64,000 nucleotides of DNA, from the NCBI GenBank assembly GCA_964612745.1, contig CAZTCH010000007.1, forward strand, positions 1,327-65,326, read 5' to 3'. The notes under the pieces are model-generated. The model did no database searches. It was not told where the DNA came from and saw only the letters and a program-made list of their open reading frames with translations. Source of the stretch: an uncultured Candidatus Saccharibacteria bacterium. Lineage in GTDB: Bacteria > Patescibacteriota > Doudnabacteria > UBA920. The translations under genes and the position numbers were made by a program. Below are positions 45,775-55,358 of the stretch, piece after piece. The stretch's first letter is position 1. Every line of letters starts with the position of its first letter.

Positions 45775-45851
45775 GGGCGTGTAGCTCAGCTGGTTAGAGC
45801 ACGAAGCTTATACCTTCGGGGTCCATGGTTCGAATCCATGCACGCCCACCA
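45775..45851 (+). tRNA. tRNA-Ile (anticodon UAU), CCA encoded
   Basis: A manual cloverleaf gives acceptor GGGCGUG/CACGCCC, D-stem GCUC/GAGC, anticodon stem CGAAG/CUUCG with loop CUUAUAC, and a T-arm CAUGG-UUCGAAU-CCAUG. A terminator follows at 45853-45883. Confidence 0.85.
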
Positions 45852-51109: not shown

Positions 51110-52276
51110 TTATGCAGCGGCGGATGCCGCTGCTGTGTCAGGTGGTGAGGGAGGTAGTTCCGCCACCGGTTTTGCTTCGAGCAGAATGCGTTCTGCTGGC
51201 TTTGGCGCGTCCGGGAGGACAAGCACTCCCGGCGTGACCGTCACCCGGAAGTCCCCGCGGGTAAAGACAATCCCGTCCGCGCTCCGGTTAATAGCCACAT
51301 CTTGCCCCATGTTATCAACACGCAACATTTTAGTGCCGGTTTGCACCGTTGCTGAATTTGCGTCGAAGTGGACGGTTAATCGGCTGGGGTGGTCGTCGGT
51401 CGCTGCCTGTGTGATGGCCGGGGTTTCTGCCTGAATGGTGGGCGGTAGTGCGGTGCGGTGGGTTGGTGCATCGTCTTTGGTCCAGCTCACAGGCAACTCA
51501 ACGGCTGCACCGACGCGATTCGGGGTAAAGACAAAGTCTTGCCCCGGAACTACGTCTGGTCTACCGTAGCGAACTGGGTTAGCGCATCCTTGAAGCGAGT
51601 AGGCCCGTTGTTCACCCTCGTGACCGTCAGCCGTATAAACACATTCGAAGCATGCGCGCTCACGGAGATATTGCGGCCGGTCATGGTCCGCATATCCCAC
51701 GTTCGCCCAGCCTGTCGCCGTGCCAGCACTGATACTCATCACCTGTATACCGTTAACCGGCAGGCCGAAGTCATGTGCGGCTTGCGCCCGCATGACCTCT
51801 GGAGCGGTGTCGTTGTTAATACCGCCACGGATAACCGCGGGGCCCGCCTGTTCGGGACGAAGCCATTTACGGTGCGCTAAGTAGCCCAGCAGGCCGATCA
51901 ATATTAATATCCCGAACAATACCCGCAGCCAGGTGTAGCTTTCGGTGGGTGGAGGTGGGGGCGGCGGTGCGATGCCGAGTTGGGCGAGGTTCGCGACCTG
52001 CGGCAGAATGCCTGCTGCTTCAAGACCAGCGAGTTGTTCGCCGGGTTTGATCAGCACGACCGTTTTGCCGTCGCTCGCCTTGAACACTCGGCCCGCCTCT
52101 TGCAGGAATGGGTTTGCGGCGACAACCTTTTGCCATTGTGTGGGGTTGTCCAGCTTCACGCCGGACAATTCCCATACGGTGTCATTGGGTTGGACTGTGT
52201 AGAGCGGTTGCGGGTTTTGCGCGAAGACTGCGAAAGTCAGCGCGCAGAGAATTGCGATTGTGAAAGTTTGCTTCAC
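51110..52276 (-). CDS. LysM-domain membrane protein with a poly-Pro linker; the gene is strongly GC-rich
   Basis: It has a signal peptide. YTVQPNDTVWELSG...W.KVVAANP is LysM-like, PPPPPPP follows, then the TM helix LRVLFGILILIGLLGYLA, then a Cys-containing domain. By eye the gene is about 60% GC, against about 42% in the flanks. Confidence 0.7.
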   Translation of the reverse strand: MKQTFTIAILCALTFAVFAQNPQPLYTVQPNDTVWELSGVKLDNPTQWQKVVAANPFLQEAGRVFKASDGKTVVLIKPGEQLAGLEAAGILPQVANLAQLGIAPPPPPPPTESYTWLRVLFGILILIGLLGYLAHRKWLRPEQAGPAVIRGGINNDTAPEVMRAQAAHDFGLPVNGIQVMSISAGTATGWANVGYADHDRPQYLRERACFECVYTADGHEGEQRAYSLQGCANPVRYGRPDVVPGQDFVFTPNRVGAAVELPVSWTKDDAPTHRTALPPTIQAETPAITQAATDDHPSRLTVHFDANSATVQTGTKMLRVDNMGQDVAINRSADGIVFTRGDFRVTVTPGVLVLPDAPKPAERILLEAKPVAELPPSPPDTAAASAAA

Positions 52277-52643
52277 GATTTGCCTCCTTTAAAGCAATGT
52301 GAAAGAGTTGGTTACGCTCTCAGGTACCGCCTCCGTAAATTGAGGCACTGAAAGCACTTGAAATTCGGCCGTGCGAGTCAGATTACCCGCTGCCGAGTAT
52401 GGGGTGAATTCCGCATGGAACCCACAGTTATAGGGCAAATAAGATTTGCCATACTTATTGGGTTTCACTAGTGATAATTCAGAGTATAATATATTTGACT
52501 GTATGTCAATAATATTGCATAGTAATTTTACTTTACCGCATAAACATGGTAACTATTGTGAATTTAGGTTTTTGGACGTAATATTTGCTCTGTTAAGGCA
52601 GTGTTTGATAATATTTACAGTATAGATTGTTACCACCAATTGT

Positions 52644-53360
52644 ATGGGGATTAAATACAAGGTCAATGCTAATTTTTTTGAGAAGTGGACTCCTGAAATG
52701 GCCTATCTTCTAGGATATCTGTACGCCGATGGTAGCTTGGAGGATGCTTCTTACTTACGCGGTAAGTATCTGAGGTTGACTAGTACTGATTTTGAATTGG
52801 TGGACTTCACGAAAAAGGTTCTGGGTTCAGAGCATACTATTGTTACTATCCCTCCGAAGTCTAAGTTAGAAAAGACCAGATATTTTTTGCGGATTGGCAA
52901 CCATAAAATATTTGATGACCTGATTGGTTTGGGTCTGCATCCTAAGAAATCATTGACGATGAAATTCCCTCAAGTCCCTCAACGGTTTTTATCACATTTC
53001 GTTCGTGGTTATTTTGATGGAGATGGACATGTCGGGATAGTGAAAAGCGGGAATTCATTCAGGCGGGTGACTATAGTTTTTGTAAGTGGTAGTTTAGATT
53101 TTCTGATAGGTGTTGCAAATTGTTTGGAACAGAATTTGGGGTTACGGATAAATAAAGTTTACAAACGTCCTGGTGTATACCGTTTGGCCTATTCCACGCA
53201 TGACAGTATCAAGGTATTTAAATACATGTACGCGGATGCAAATGGTGTATTTTTAAGAAGAAAATTTGGGGTGTTCAAAAAGTTTTTTAATGATTATAAT
53301 AAGTGGGTAGATTCAGAAATCCAGGGGATTTTAAGCGTAAATGGTCGTGTGGTGAAGTAG
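52644..53360 (+). CDS. LAGLIDADG homing endonuclease, double-motif single-chain type, free-standing
   Basis: The two motifs are LLGYLYADGSL (aa 22-32) and VRGYFDGDGHV (aa about 121-131). 238 aa. The stop codon TAG at 53358-53360 lies inside the first 18 nt of the predicted tRNA-Cys. Confidence 0.85.
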   Translation: MGIKYKVNANFFEKWTPEMAYLLGYLYADGSLEDASYLRGKYLRLTSTDFELVDFTKKVLGSEHTIVTIPPKSKLEKTRYFLRIGNHKIFDDLIGLGLHPKKSLTMKFPQVPQRFLSHFVRGYFDGDGHVGIVKSGNSFRRVTIVFVSGSLDFLIGVANCLEQNLGLRINKVYKRPGVYRLAYSTHDSIKVFKYMYADANGVFLRRKFGVFKKFFNDYNKWVDSEIQGILSVNGRVVK

Positions 53361-53419
53361 TCTAACACGGCGGTCTGCAAAACCGCTATTCATGGGTGCG
53401 AATCCCATCACGACCTCCA
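53343..53419 (+). tRNA. tRNA-Cys (anticodon GCA), non-canonical (3-bp D-stem, G at T-loop position 55)
   Basis: The acceptor is GGUCGUG/CACGACC with discriminator U and CCA. The anticodon stem GCGGU/ACCGC carries the loop CUGCAAA. The T-arm is AUGGG-UGCGAAU-CCCAU. The deviations from consensus lower confidence. Confidence 0.55.
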
Positions 53420-53424
53420 TTGTA

Positions 53425-53509
53425 GCCCGAGTGGTGGAACTGGTATACACGCGACACTTAAAATGTTGTGCCGAAAGGATTGAGGGTTCGAGTCCCTCCT
53501 CGGGCACCA
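53425..53509 (+). tRNA. tRNA-Leu (anticodon UAA), long variable arm
   Basis: The acceptor is GCCCGAG/CUCGGGC plus A-CCA. The anticodon stem CGACA/UGUUG carries the loop CUUAAAA. The variable arm is UGCCGAAAGGAUU and the T-arm is GAGGG-UUCGAGU-CCCUC. It is contiguous, with no intron. Confidence 0.85.
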
Positions 53510-53512
53510 CAT

Positions 53513-53542
53513 AAAAAACACCGACATAAGCCGGTGTTTTTA
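53513..53542 (+). terminator. Rho-independent terminator (aaaaaacaccg-acataag-ccggtgtttttatg)
   Basis: Hairpin plus a T-run directly after tRNA-Leu. Confidence 0.7.
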
Positions 53543-53564
53543 TGTGCTCCTCATTGTTTGCATA

Positions 53565-53590
53565 CAAAACAAAACCCCCTCAAGGGAGGG
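53565..53590 (-). terminator. Terminator (ccccctc-aag-ggaggggg plus a U-run on the minus strand) for the 53599..54234 gene
   Basis: The minus strand reads accccctcccttgagggggttttgtttt. Confidence 0.65.
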
Positions 53591-53598
53591 GGTAAAAT

Positions 53599-54234
53599 TT
53601 ATTTTGCTAAAGCCAACTCTTGGTGAGCAGGTTTAATTGCGTATTTCTGGTTAACAGTTTCTTGTATAGCTGCCATTTCACGTTCTACTTTTTCACAACC
53701 ACGTAGCCAGTTAGCTGACCCTGGTACAACGTACACACCCATCTTTTTCTTACAGGTATTGTACTTATTTTTGTACAATGGTTTGTCGAGTAGTTTGGTT
53801 ACGGCTTGAAAGCCTTGAAAATGGTTTTCAAACTTTCTCCATTGTGAATGCCCAGGCTTTACACCAACGCTACCACAGTTAAGGTTTGCAGCGCGAGCAC
53901 AAAAGTTGCTTTCCACAAAGGTAATACCGAGTGCTTGTTCCCAATTTGGCTCCAGAATAATCTGGTCTGCGTATGGGGCAAGTGGAGACTTTTTGGACTC
54001 CAAGTATTTTTGCACAGCTTCTGCGAGTTCCGCATTAGCCAAATCTTGCACATTAAGGCTCTGTTTCTGAGTGATTAAGCTTAGTGCACTTGGTTTCATC
54101 TCAAACACAAGGCTCTGAGTGTTCTCGTTTATAGTCTGTGCGGCACCACTATGTGGGTAGACTAAGCTTACTAATGTAATGAGTAATCCTACGGCTGATA
54201 ATTGAATATTTGTATAAGTAAGGGGAGCTTTCAT
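53599..54234 (-). CDS. Secreted hypothetical protein (signal peptide; possibly a cell-wall hydrolase-like fold)
   Basis: The N-terminal hydrophobic segment is LLITLVSLVYPHSGAAQ. ALGITFVESNFCARAANLNCGSVGV weakly resembles a lytic-transglycosylase (SLT) motif. 211 aa. Confidence 0.5.
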   Translation of the reverse strand: MKAPLTYTNIQLSAVGLLITLVSLVYPHSGAAQTINENTQSLVFEMKPSALSLITQKQSLNVQDLANAELAEAVQKYLESKKSPLAPYADQIILEPNWEQALGITFVESNFCARAANLNCGSVGVKPGHSQWRKFENHFQGFQAVTKLLDKPLYKNKYNTCKKKMGVYVVPGSANWLRGCEKVEREMAAIQETVNQKYAIKPAHQELALAK

Positions 54235-54578
54235 TGTTCAAACTCCTTTCTACAATCGATCGCGTTTGTCTGAAAACAGATGTGGGCGATTCGAGAATTA
54301 TAAGGTCTGGCAACTGTCACAACATATAGAACTTGCCAAACAAAAAAGCGCCACAAGGCACTTCTTATGGACCTAGTATGCCAAATATGGGCCGATTAGT
54401 CAATACTTAAAAGTTAAAATAAGCTTTATTTAAGAGGATATTTGTTTTTTACCTCTCAGAATAGGCGTAAATACCCTGTCAATACCACACTCTATTTGAC
54501 TTTTCATATCTATTTGGCACTGATATGCAGGGTTTTAAAATTTAGCTTTAATTGTAAGGGTTTTATTGGTGGCGTGGG

Positions 54579-54632
54579 TAACCCTGACACGAAACAGTCG
54601 GGATGTCGAAGACTCCAGGGGAACCCAACTTC
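54579..54632 (-). repeat. Copy 1 of an approximately 50-nt direct repeat (minus-strand sense ...UUCCCCUGGAGUCUUCGACAUCCCGACUGUUUCGUGUCAGGGUUACCCACGCCACCA)
   Basis: The plus strand gggtaaccctgacacgaaacagtcgggatgtcgaagactccaggggaa is 44/50 identical to copy 2 at 55243. Three substitutions keep a 6-bp stem pairing (CCUGAC/GUCGGG vs CCCGAC/GUCGGG, one pair via G-U wobble). It ends with a tRNA-3'-end-like ACCCACGCCACCA. Confidence 0.6.
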
Positions 54633-54694
54633 GCCAAGGCTACGTCGGGCTCAGTCGAACCCAAAAGTTCCTTCATTCATTCTTTCTCTTTCAA

Positions 54695-54728
54695 AAACAA
54701 AAGACACCCACTAAAGTGAGTGTCTTTT
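54695..54728 (-). terminator. Rho-independent terminator of the ParB-like gene (minus strand aaaagacactcac-ttta-gtgggtgtcttttgtttttg)
   Basis: A 12-bp stem with one mismatch, followed by a U-run. Confidence 0.65.
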
Positions 54729-54762
54729 GTTTGGAGCTCCATAATACGAGATGTCAGAACTG

Positions 54763-55182
54763 CTATCTGTGCAATAGATCATAGATAACTCTATCTTCAG
54801 TGTAGATAATATTGATAAATGGGGGTTTGAACTTTTTTAATGCTTCGAACGTATGATTACCATCGAGTAAGTAATAATTGCTATCAAATTTCTCACACAG
54901 TAAAACTATTTGTTCAGCCATAAATTCTTCAATGATGATTTTATCAGTAGTATCTTGAAATTTCACTACTGATTCATGATTGAGCATTTCTGGCTCAGGA
55001 CCTACGGTTCGTATAATCAATTCTGGGTTAACTTTTTCTGGACCTTTTATATTATCTTTTCGGCTTTGAATATACTTTAAAAGATTCGTATTATTAGCTT
55101 CTAAATGTTTAAAAGTATCAACTAACCATTGAGAGTAGTTTCCAACATTTTTAGCTTCCTCAATTTGTTTAACTGTTAACAT
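54763..55182 (-). CDS. ParB-like nuclease domain protein (ParB/Srx superfamily), small and stand-alone
   Basis: YYLLDGNHTFEALKK matches the ParB/sulfiredoxin DGHHR-type motif, with DGNH in place of DGHH. 139 aa. Flanked by the approximately 50-nt direct repeats. Confidence 0.6.
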   Translation of the reverse strand: MLTVKQIEEAKNVGNYSQWLVDTFKHLEANNTNLLKYIQSRKDNIKGPEKVNPELIIRTVGPEPEMLNHESVVKFQDTTDKIIIEEFMAEQIVLLCEKFDSNYYLLDGNHTFEALKKFKPPFINIIYTEDRVIYDLLHR

Positions 55183-55242
55183 GATTTCAGTATAACAAAA
55201 AATTCCCTTTAGGGAGAGTTTAATGCTGGAGCGGGTAACCCC

Positions 55243-55296
55243 GACGCGAAACGGTCGGGATGTCGGGGACTCCAGGGGAAGACCGCACTACATCTC
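55243..55296 (-). repeat. Copy 2 of the approximately 50-nt direct repeat; its minus-strand 3' end ...GGGGUUACCCGCUCCA equals the last 12 nt of tRNA-Gly(GCC)
   Basis: The plus strand reads tggagcgggtaaccccgacgcgaaacggtcgggatgtcggggactccaggggaa. Confidence 0.6.
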
Positions 55297-55305
55297 ATAA
55301 ACATA

Positions 55306-55345
55306 TAGACCTCACCGTAAAGGTGAGGTCTATATGTTTGGAGCG
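55306..55345. terminator. Perfect 17-bp hairpin (aacatatagacctcacc-gtaaa-ggtgaggtctatatgtt)
   Basis: Seen directly. It lies immediately 3' (minus sense) of the tRNA-Gly 3' fragment. Confidence 0.5.
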
Positions 55346-55358
55346 GGTAAGGGGAATC

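Follow-up and report, generated by a model that had tools for sequence, protein, structure and literature searches.

A LAGLIDADG homing endonuclease gene abutting tRNA-Cys in the putative leader of a Patescibacteria tRNA operon

The endonuclease gene and the tRNA genes at its end

The DNA considered here, referred to as the window, is a stretch of 64,000 nucleotides (nt) from an uncultured Candidatus Saccharibacteria bacterium (assembly GCA_964612745.1, contig CAZTCH010000007.1) that is placed by GTDB within the Doudnabacteria of the Patescibacteriota. At 52644..53360 on the plus strand the window contains an open reading frame (ORF) with an ATG start that encodes a 238-residue protein with two LAGLIDADG motifs, and the TAG stop codon of this ORF (53358-53360) lies inside a gene for tRNA-Cys(GCA) (53343..53419, plus strand). 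The tRNA-Cys gene is followed 5 nt later by an uninterrupted gene for tRNA-Leu(UAA) (53425..53509, plus strand), and the unit is closed by an intrinsic terminator-like hairpin and U-run (53508..53546, plus strand) with a folding energy of -17.2 kcal/mol (z = -5.6; none of 200 shuffled sequences was as stable). An initial annotation, made from the letters alone, had described this arrangement as a free-standing homing endonuclease gene lodged in a tRNA cluster. The present results agree with that description, as there is no intron match, the tRNA genes are contiguous, and the ORF starts with its own Met codon behind a conserved promoter-like box.

The contiguity of both tRNA genes, which had been stated in the initial annotation, is confirmed by ARAGORN and Rfam, with Rfam scores of 62 bits for tRNA-Cys (53343..53416; cut-off 29 bits) and 56.7 bits for tRNA-Leu. 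A 7-bp acceptor stem and an alignment to approximately 55 orthologous tRNA-Cys genes confirm the 5' end of tRNA-Cys. ARAGORN and Rfam also bear out the claim that the ORF ends 18 nt inside the tRNA: the TAG stop coincides with tRNA nucleotides 16-18, the overlap is exactly 18 nt, and tRNA nucleotides 1-18 double as the last five codons and the stop codon of the endonuclease ORF. At the other end of the gene, the 3' sequence ...CACGACC-T-CCA includes an encoded CCA and a U73 discriminator, which is an identity element of tRNA-Cys.

The tRNA-Cys had been considered unusual on two counts, of which one stands. While U55 (pseudouridine) is almost universal in tRNAs, the T-loop of this tRNA has G55 instead; this base is real and co-varies with A18 in the D-loop across Patescibacteria relatives. 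Among the distinct tRNA-Cys sequences of loci L001-L087 and the window, the combinations A18/G55, G18/U55, A18/U55 and G18/G55 are seen 28, 24, 3 and 0 times, respectively. Two main forms are present, one with ..GTAG.. in the D-loop and GGGTGCRAATCCC in the T-loop (A18/G55) and the other with ..GTGG.. and GGTTCRA (G18/U55). The second supposed oddity, a 3-bp D-stem, is ordinary together with its A13/A22 mismatch for bacterial tRNA-Cys, as in the tRNA-Cys of E. coli. The TAG stop at tRNA nucleotides 16-18 exists because this tRNA-Cys is the A18/G55 variant; where the tRNA carries G18, the frame continues to a later stop or the ORF stops just before the tRNA.

The two motifs reported in the initial annotation, LLGYLYADGSL (containing D29) and VRGYFDGDGHV (containing D127), are both present in the protein, and the second domain alone is matched by Pfam PF14528 (LAGLIDADG_3; E 4.4e-13, 49.7 bits, cut-off 22.5). 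Both aspartates and their flanking glycines are invariant in an alignment of 22 homologues. The AlphaFold2 model built on this alignment is confident (mean predicted local distance difference test score, pLDDT, of 89.5; predicted template modeling score, pTM, of 0.89) and consists of two repeats of a helix, four strands and further helices, as in the pseudo-dimeric LAGLIDADG fold. A Foldseek search of the PDB with the model returned LAGLIDADG enzymes or intein endonuclease domains throughout the matches listed (107 with E <= 0.001), with template modeling (TM) scores of up to 0.61. I-Tsp061I ranks first, the other top matches include an intein endonuclease domain, I-AniI and I-OnuI, and the bI3 maturase is also present. 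Comparison of a sequence profile with the PDB likewise identified I-Tsp061I (2DCH, E 4e-6) and an I-DmoI chimera. The invariance of D29 and D127, the confident model and the uniformly LAGLIDADG nature of the structural matches together argue that the ORF encodes a LAGLIDADG homing endonuclease of the monomeric, two-domain type whose catalytic residues are intact, and DNA cleavage is its predicted activity. In the model, the pLDDT falls below 50 at residues 234-238 alone, which is almost exactly the tRNA-encoded tail GRVVK, and the overlap with the tRNA is accordingly predicted to contribute a floppy tail and no structural element.

The initial annotation had seen no group I core upstream of the ORF. 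Consistent with this, Rfam searches of 51900-57400 at E <= 10 detected no group I or group II intron and no RNA family besides tRNAs apart from chance-level matches, and a search of the whole window at the gathering threshold returned tRNAs and no intron. As a positive control, the intron search recovered a group I intron in locus L084 at 75.5 bits. The 367 nt upstream of the ORF (52277-52643) hold just two mechanically listed 59-residue ORFs and include the start region of a divergent minus-strand gene; this stretch is taken as non-coding. Its description as structured has little support, as its fold has a z-score of -2.0 and 3 of 100 shuffled sequences fold as well. A structured upstream RNA was also rejected because the relatives share a short promoter-proximal box alone and the mean column identity is 46%. 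An insertion inside the tRNA that displaced a 5' fragment was rejected as well, since the first 18 nt of the tRNA occur once in the window when up to 3 mismatches are allowed.

A family of endonuclease genes at tRNA genes

A word-indexed protein search identified 813 relatives of the endonuclease at E <= 0.001, essentially all of them from assemblies of Patescibacteria, also known as the candidate phyla radiation (CPR), and an exhaustive HMMER search gave 938 clusters (50% identity) at E <= 1e-30. In a scan of one genome per species, at least 488 relatives were found, and the position of the ORF end relative to the next tRNA was tabulated for the best 80 loci. In the relatives examined first (61-67% identity), the ORF again ends exactly 18 nt into tRNA-Cys and tRNA-Leu(UAA) follows. 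The ORF stop is located -23 to +12 nt from tRNA-Cys +1 in 50 distinct loci, bar two read-through copies (-79 and -81), and a repetition on this scale speaks against a chance abutment. The homologues at tRNA-Cys loci are 39-69% identical to the window protein, and the stop falls inside tRNA-Cys in 35 of the 50 loci, with -18 and the tail GxVVK as the commonest class; two further loci of the tRNA-Cys group have disrupted ORFs. The 50 loci are labeled Doudnabacteria, Moranbacteria, Parcubacteria, Paceibacterota, Magasanikbacteria, Yanofskybacteria, Andersenbacteria and others. The overlap between ORF and tRNA is a family-wide trait that is not peculiar to the window locus. It is a by-product of an ORF packed against a tRNA gene, the abutment being what is conserved.

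Relatives of the endonuclease also occupy other tRNA sites. Members of a more remote clade (36-42% identity) likewise abut tRNA-Asp(GTC), often with tRNA-Met just upstream, and other relatives are placed directly after tRNA-Cys or tRNA-Met or, in some cases, in the spacer between tRNA-Cys and tRNA-Leu. In a neighbor-joining tree, which is a distance tree without support values, the proteins cluster by insertion site: all 57 proteins encoded directly before tRNA-Cys form one clade, and separate clades comprise the genes between tRNA-Met and tRNA-Asp, those after tRNA-Cys, and those between tRNA-Cys and tRNA-Leu. Eighty viral relatives (29-37% identity) were considered as well, and among these loci a tRNA gene of any kind was found at four and a tRNA gene within 100 nt downstream at one. 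A phage vector was rejected on this basis, as viral contigs hold distant relatives only and these are not beside tRNAs.

Several individual assemblies in the survey have features of their own. Contig VMGJ01000005.1, on which both L018 and L076 are located, carries a Cys-type as well as a Met-type endonuclease gene, and the metagenome-assembled genome SMAG_U8090 has two loci with the order endonuclease, tRNA-Cys, tRNA-Leu on different contigs (L036 and L048), which could reflect a strain mixture or a duplication. The group I intron of L084 (3516-3752) is situated approximately 80 nt upstream of a tRNA-Met gene, and a LAGLIDADG gene belonging to the Met/Asp clade lies after this tRNA-Met.

The frequency of the endonuclease was assessed with a sample that was blind to its presence. 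The pattern used to search metagenome contigs was taken from the anticodon arm and the T arm of this type of tRNA-Cys, excluding the first 30 nt of the tRNA, and 79 distinct loci had at least 780 nt of upstream sequence. Seven of these contain an intact abutting endonuclease gene, one a frameshifted copy (L176), one a C-terminal stump (L103), and 70 are empty, such that the endonuclease is absent from approximately 89% of comparable tRNA-Cys loci. The order tRNA-Cys then tRNA-Leu(UAA) is kept in most loci of this sample (80 of 117 tRNA-Cys loci). The tRNA-Cys gene of the occupied locus L181 is identical to those of the empty loci L116, L161 and L170, and near-identical tRNA-Cys genes link L120 with L122 and L001/L010 with L192. 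The surrounding gene order is also common to occupied and empty loci: in many lineages it is rbfA, the endonuclease gene where present, tRNA-Cys and tRNA-Leu, and in the clade of the window it is S1 (plus strand), a minus-strand gene, the endonuclease gene where present, tRNA-Cys, tRNA-Leu and a minus-strand gene for a 211-residue protein. L192 is an empty relative within the clade of the window, with an S1 protein 72% identical. At equal divergence of the flanks, occupied loci are interspersed with empty ones; the flanks of the occupied locus L206, for instance, are nearer to those of the empty loci L097 and L146 than to those of the occupied locus L013. Comparison with relatives lacking the ORF, which the initial annotation had suggested, thus supports mobility through patchy presence at a syntenic site and decayed copies. 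Interleaved patchy presence, decayed copies and site-specific clades together form the footprint of a homing endonuclease and run counter to a conserved host function.

A second family of nuclease genes is found in the spacer downstream of tRNA-Cys. The spacer between tRNA-Cys and tRNA-Leu exceeds 400 nt in 14 of 80 loci in the blind sample, and two of these 14 hold LAGLIDADG genes, while decayed remnants of LAGLIDADG genes closely follow tRNA-Cys at two loci that are not among the 14. A gene for an HNH endonuclease of approximately 165 residues is present in the spacer at nine loci, with inserts of approximately 545 nt: L110 (118-615), L139 (908-1402), L162 (2572-3087), L167 (3261-3764), L171 (2877-3386), L199, L123, L157 and L205 (frameshifted). 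Eight of these are among the 14 long-spacer loci, the tRNA-Cys of L110 being cut by the contig end. The HNH identity was established for the representatives L110 and L139, which matched Pfam HNH/HNH_3, and in at least five of the HNH genes the reading frame continues into the start of tRNA-Leu. LAGLIDADG and HNH nucleases, which are unrelated families, use the same kind of tRNA site.

The operon leader and how the gene may persist there

The position of the endonuclease gene relative to the tRNA operon can be read from promoter-like sequences at occupied and empty loci. Empty alleles have a sigma-70-type promoter with the -10 box approximately 10-30 nt before tRNA-Cys +1 (approximately 50 nt in L097), as in L159 (TTTGACC-N-GTTAAGCT-20 nt-tRNA) and L163 (TGATAATAT-25 nt-tRNA), and a TTGACC box is found in the endonuclease-free loci L159 and L162. 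The occupied loci L013, L158 and L206 keep a box of the type TTGAC(C/A)-N17/18-(G)TTAAGCT upstream of the endonuclease unit, as in L159, and the retained box is followed by approximately 85-105 nt, the ORF and the tRNA. A candidate for the original promoter of the tRNA-Cys/tRNA-Leu operon in the window, TTGACT-N17-CATAGT (52495..52523, plus strand; 9 of 12 consensus matches in a consensus scan), is situated approximately 120 nt upstream of the endonuclease ATG, and the relative L008 has TTGACC-N17-TGTAAA in the same place. Since the promoter is retained upstream in occupied loci, the gene was probably inserted in the operon leader, and these sequences indicate that it occupies the 5' leader of the operon between a putative promoter and the tRNA. 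An attempt to align the empty locus L192 with the window and L008 at the 5' junction found the intergenic DNA too diverged to align informatively. A palindrome, TTGACTGTATGTCAA, at 52495-52509 (TTGACCTAATGTCAA in L008) overlaps the candidate original promoter and may be an operator.

A second promoter-like element is found closer to the endonuclease gene. In the window, this element reads TTGCTC (52585-90), N17 and ATAATA (52608-13), with TG in front (52585..52613, plus strand, from reading of the sequence). Next, at 52614..52643 (plus strand), come the mobile unit's conserved 5' box, TTTACAGTAT...TTACCAC, and a short leader that lacks a Shine-Dalgarno sequence. In the clade of the window, TTGCAGTAT is immediately preceded by a TATAAT-like box, an arrangement that recurs in L001, L008, L010, L013-L017, L033, L120, L135, L158, L176 and L181; the TTGCAGTA-type motif is present in 25 of 53 loci, and TTACCAC-like spacers are present in many more. 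The arrangement TTGCAG-N17(..TTACCAC.)-TATAAT-6 nt-ATG/GTG is found at many loci, and the placement of TATAAT 6 nt before the start codon predicts a leaderless mRNA. The ORF has no Shine-Dalgarno sequence; in the neighboring minus-strand gene, AAAGGAGG precedes the GTG start by 6 nt. A consensus scan detected no plus-strand promoter-like site inside the ORF. The inserted unit of approximately 0.75-0.8 kb seems to bring its own promoter-like box. The TTACCAC of the window (52630-52636), which is conserved in the promoter spacer across many loci, has a reverse complement (GTGGTAA) that resembles tRNA-Cys nucleotides 7-13 (GTGGTGA); the likeness may be due to chance, or the element could serve as an operator in autoregulation.

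The explanation that fits these observations best, and which we consider likely, is that the gene is a selfish, free-standing gene for a monomeric LAGLIDADG homing endonuclease that resides in the leader of a tRNA operon, is co-transcribed with the tRNAs and is separated from them by RNase P. First, a single transcript would carry the ORF, tRNA-Cys and tRNA-Leu, as there is no room or promoter between the ORF and the tRNAs. RNase P cleavage at tRNA-Cys +1 would then release the tRNAs, such that the insertion would cost the host little and RNase P would play the role that splicing has for intron-borne endonucleases. The enzyme, in turn, would cut endonuclease-free alleles at or near the junction of leader and tRNA-Cys; this junction is the presumed target because the 5' part of the tRNA is the sole conserved sequence there (+1 to +19 of empty alleles, at approximately 1-2 bits per position). 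Finally, repair from the occupied allele would copy the gene into the cut empty allele. Additionally, the stop codon inside the tRNA may help keep the enzyme scarce, because RNase P cleavage would leave an mRNA without a stop and only unprocessed transcripts would give released protein. The stop is removable by RNase P in this manner in the window and in 70% of the family members.

Several points weigh against this explanation. The stop lies outside the tRNA in 15 of the 50 loci, which suggests that the stop-less mRNA is not essential to the family. In 97 empty alleles, the 30 nt that precede +1 contain only approximately 0-0.2 bits per position, with a weak T at -1, so that a classic split target would have one degenerate half and no left recognition half is apparent in these alleles. 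The tRNA part of the presumed target is identical in occupied and empty alleles, whereas the explanation needs occupied alleles to escape cutting. No occupied and empty pair from the same species is present in the sample, in which the closest flanks are approximately 75-80% identical. Within the clade of the window, the endonuclease diverges about as much as host genes do, with 61-62% identity compared with 73% for S1 and 54% for RbfA, and inheritance there could be mostly vertical. Cleavage, homing and co-transcription are themselves inferred from sequence.

Vertical descent is the basis of the first alternative, in which the gene is a stranded passenger: a former homing gene, now without targets or activity, whose expression simply results from transcription of the tRNA operon. 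The divergence of the endonuclease in the clade of the window, similar to that of neighboring housekeeping genes, is what this alternative would predict, and near-identical copies in unrelated backgrounds were not seen. It accounts poorly for a full-length ORF with all the invariant residues of the family, and the 60-69% identity over 238 residues, without frameshifts, in at least seven relatives points to continued purifying selection. Furthermore, L028 has an S1 protein that is 71% identical, like those of other clade members, and an endonuclease that is 47% identical, which suggests replacement of its endonuclease rather than purely vertical inheritance. A stranded passenger is consequently regarded as unlikely.

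It is likewise rather improbable that the protein is a domesticated host factor acting at tRNA-Cys, for instance by binding DNA and regulating the promoter or by assisting the pre-tRNA in the manner of a maturase. The intact ORFs and invariant motif residues across very diverse lineages, the conserved upstream box with its unusually conserved TTACCAC spacer, and divergence about in step with host genes in the clade of the window would all suit such a factor, and LAGLIDADG maturases are known, with the bI3 maturase among the fold matches noted above. However, a host factor would hardly be missing from most comparable tRNA-Cys loci, including loci with identical tRNAs, and the existence of frameshifted and truncated copies, of sister clades at other tRNAs and of HNH genes at the same kind of site argues in the same direction. 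Both catalytic aspartates are also kept, whereas they are often lost in maturases. The remaining alternative, an endonuclease encoded in an intron or intein that escaped detection, would give the protein the usual home of LAGLIDADG enzymes and the setting of its closest structures (an archaeal rRNA intron enzyme and an intein domain), and is nevertheless extremely improbable given the lack of intron family matches, the two contiguous and well-scoring tRNAs, the empty alleles that place the insertion outside the tRNA, the lack of a displaced tRNA 5' end in the window, and an ORF that begins with its own Met codon and has neither an extein nor a Hint domain beside it.

A broader idea that builds on the selfish leader-borne gene is put forward tentatively, as a possibility that we hold with some doubt. 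Leaders and spacers of tRNA precursors may constitute an intron-like niche in which at least two families (LAGLIDADG and HNH) have repeatedly settled directly 5' of tRNAs, depend on the RNase P of the host, and not on self-splicing, to be harmless, and use the conserved 5' end of the tRNA as part of the target and as the end of the reading frame. Removal of the stop codon, in most copies, would in this case couple tRNA maturation to endonuclease shut-off via the rescue of stop-less mRNAs.

Known systems and neighboring features

The likeness to the seg/mob genes of phage tRNA regions that the initial annotation had drawn is apt. The segB gene of phage T4 is a free-standing GIY-YIG gene between the genes for tRNA-Arg and tRNA-Ile, its target is in the tRNA region of endonuclease-free relatives, and it has its own promoter and a transcript that is processed by a host RNase (PMC2988022). 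As an endonuclease gene lodged at tRNA genes, it is the closest precedent in lifestyle. In contrast to SegB, which is a phage GIY-YIG enzyme that spreads in co-infection and whose gene does not overlap a tRNA, the Patescibacteria family consists of LAGLIDADG proteins encoded on cellular chromosomes; its genes abut the 5' end of the tRNA or run into it at 50 loci, and across the phylum its members fall into site-specific clades.

In CPR bacteria, LAGLIDADG genes have been described in insertion sequences of rRNA genes, such as that for I-ShaI (Tsurumaki et al. 2024, PMC11270868). These belong to the same phylum and superfamily, and likewise show site-specific clades, a patchy distribution and degenerate copies; however, they are mostly single-domain proteins encoded in rRNA genes, mostly within group-I-like introns, whereas the family described here has two motifs and is free-standing and tRNA-linked. 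The word tRNA has no occurrence in the main text of this broadest survey of CPR rRNA insertions (PMC11270868). Searches of the full-text literature, with incomplete coverage such that an earlier report may exist, returned no description of tRNA-linked free-standing LAGLIDADG genes in CPR bacteria, only of rRNA introns. The large family of homing endonuclease genes embedded in leaders and spacers at tRNA genes of Patescibacteria is apparently undescribed.

Among characterized enzymes, the archaeal I-Tsp061I and I-DmoI provide the best sequence and fold matches, being monomeric two-domain LAGLIDADG proteins of approximately 200-240 residues. Their genes are located within rRNA introns that are spliced out, while the window ORF is in a pre-tRNA leader with no intron and is only approximately 17% identical. 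The group I intron of tRNA-Leu(UAA) in cyanobacteria and plastids, whether selfish or ancient, is tolerated because RNA processing restores the tRNA. That intron breaks the anticodon loop and is removed by its own ribozyme, whereas the tRNA genes of the window are intact and removal of the insertion would need the RNase P of the host.

Homing endonuclease genes are thought to persist mainly in introns and inteins, and free-standing ones are known chiefly from phages. If the selfish leader-borne gene is confirmed, the discarded part of a tRNA precursor would be a third hiding place and a new answer to how selfish nucleases remain harmless, and it would point to gene flow among CPR bacteria. The family would also offer compact monomeric meganucleases with natural tRNA-gene targets as possible engineering scaffolds, as well as a natural system in which to study how translation and RNase P compete for a single transcript. 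For annotators, the overlaps between ORFs and tRNAs in Patescibacteria genomes are real and are not miscalls.

The minus strand of the window upstream of the endonuclease unit contains a 388-residue ORF (51110-52276) with a GC content of approximately 60% within a neighborhood of approximately 42%. The encoded protein has a signal-peptide-like N-terminus, a proline run and a weak LysM-like match only, and has one homologue (P0123, 60% identity) among 5.8 billion proteins. The gene that takes this place in L192 proved unrelated to the GC-rich ORF.

The initial annotation had also marked the RNA island at 52.3-57.2 kb as a hotspot for selfish elements. This remark is partly borne out, by the LAGLIDADG and HNH genes in the spacer between tRNA-Cys and tRNA-Leu of other genomes and, in the window itself, by tRNA 3' ends that occur in duplicate at 54.7-57.2 kb. 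A second copy (96%) of the final 26 nt of tRNA-Leu(GAG) plus A6 (56474-56499) is found at 57137-57162, and the two copies flank a GC-rich stretch of 663 nt made up of approximately four degenerate repeats of 155-167 nt, with an inverted copy of the unit at 55363-55455. The 3' end of tRNA-Gly(GCC) (55537-55565) is similarly repeated at 55335-55363 (97%) and partly at 54713-54737. These duplicated ends look like scars of repeated integration. Elsewhere in the window, a tRNA-Ile with the anticodon TAT (UAU) is encoded at 45775-45851 (ARAGORN; Rfam 70.6 bits); most bacteria read AUA with a modified CAU tRNA, and a UAU tRNA-Ile is uncommon.

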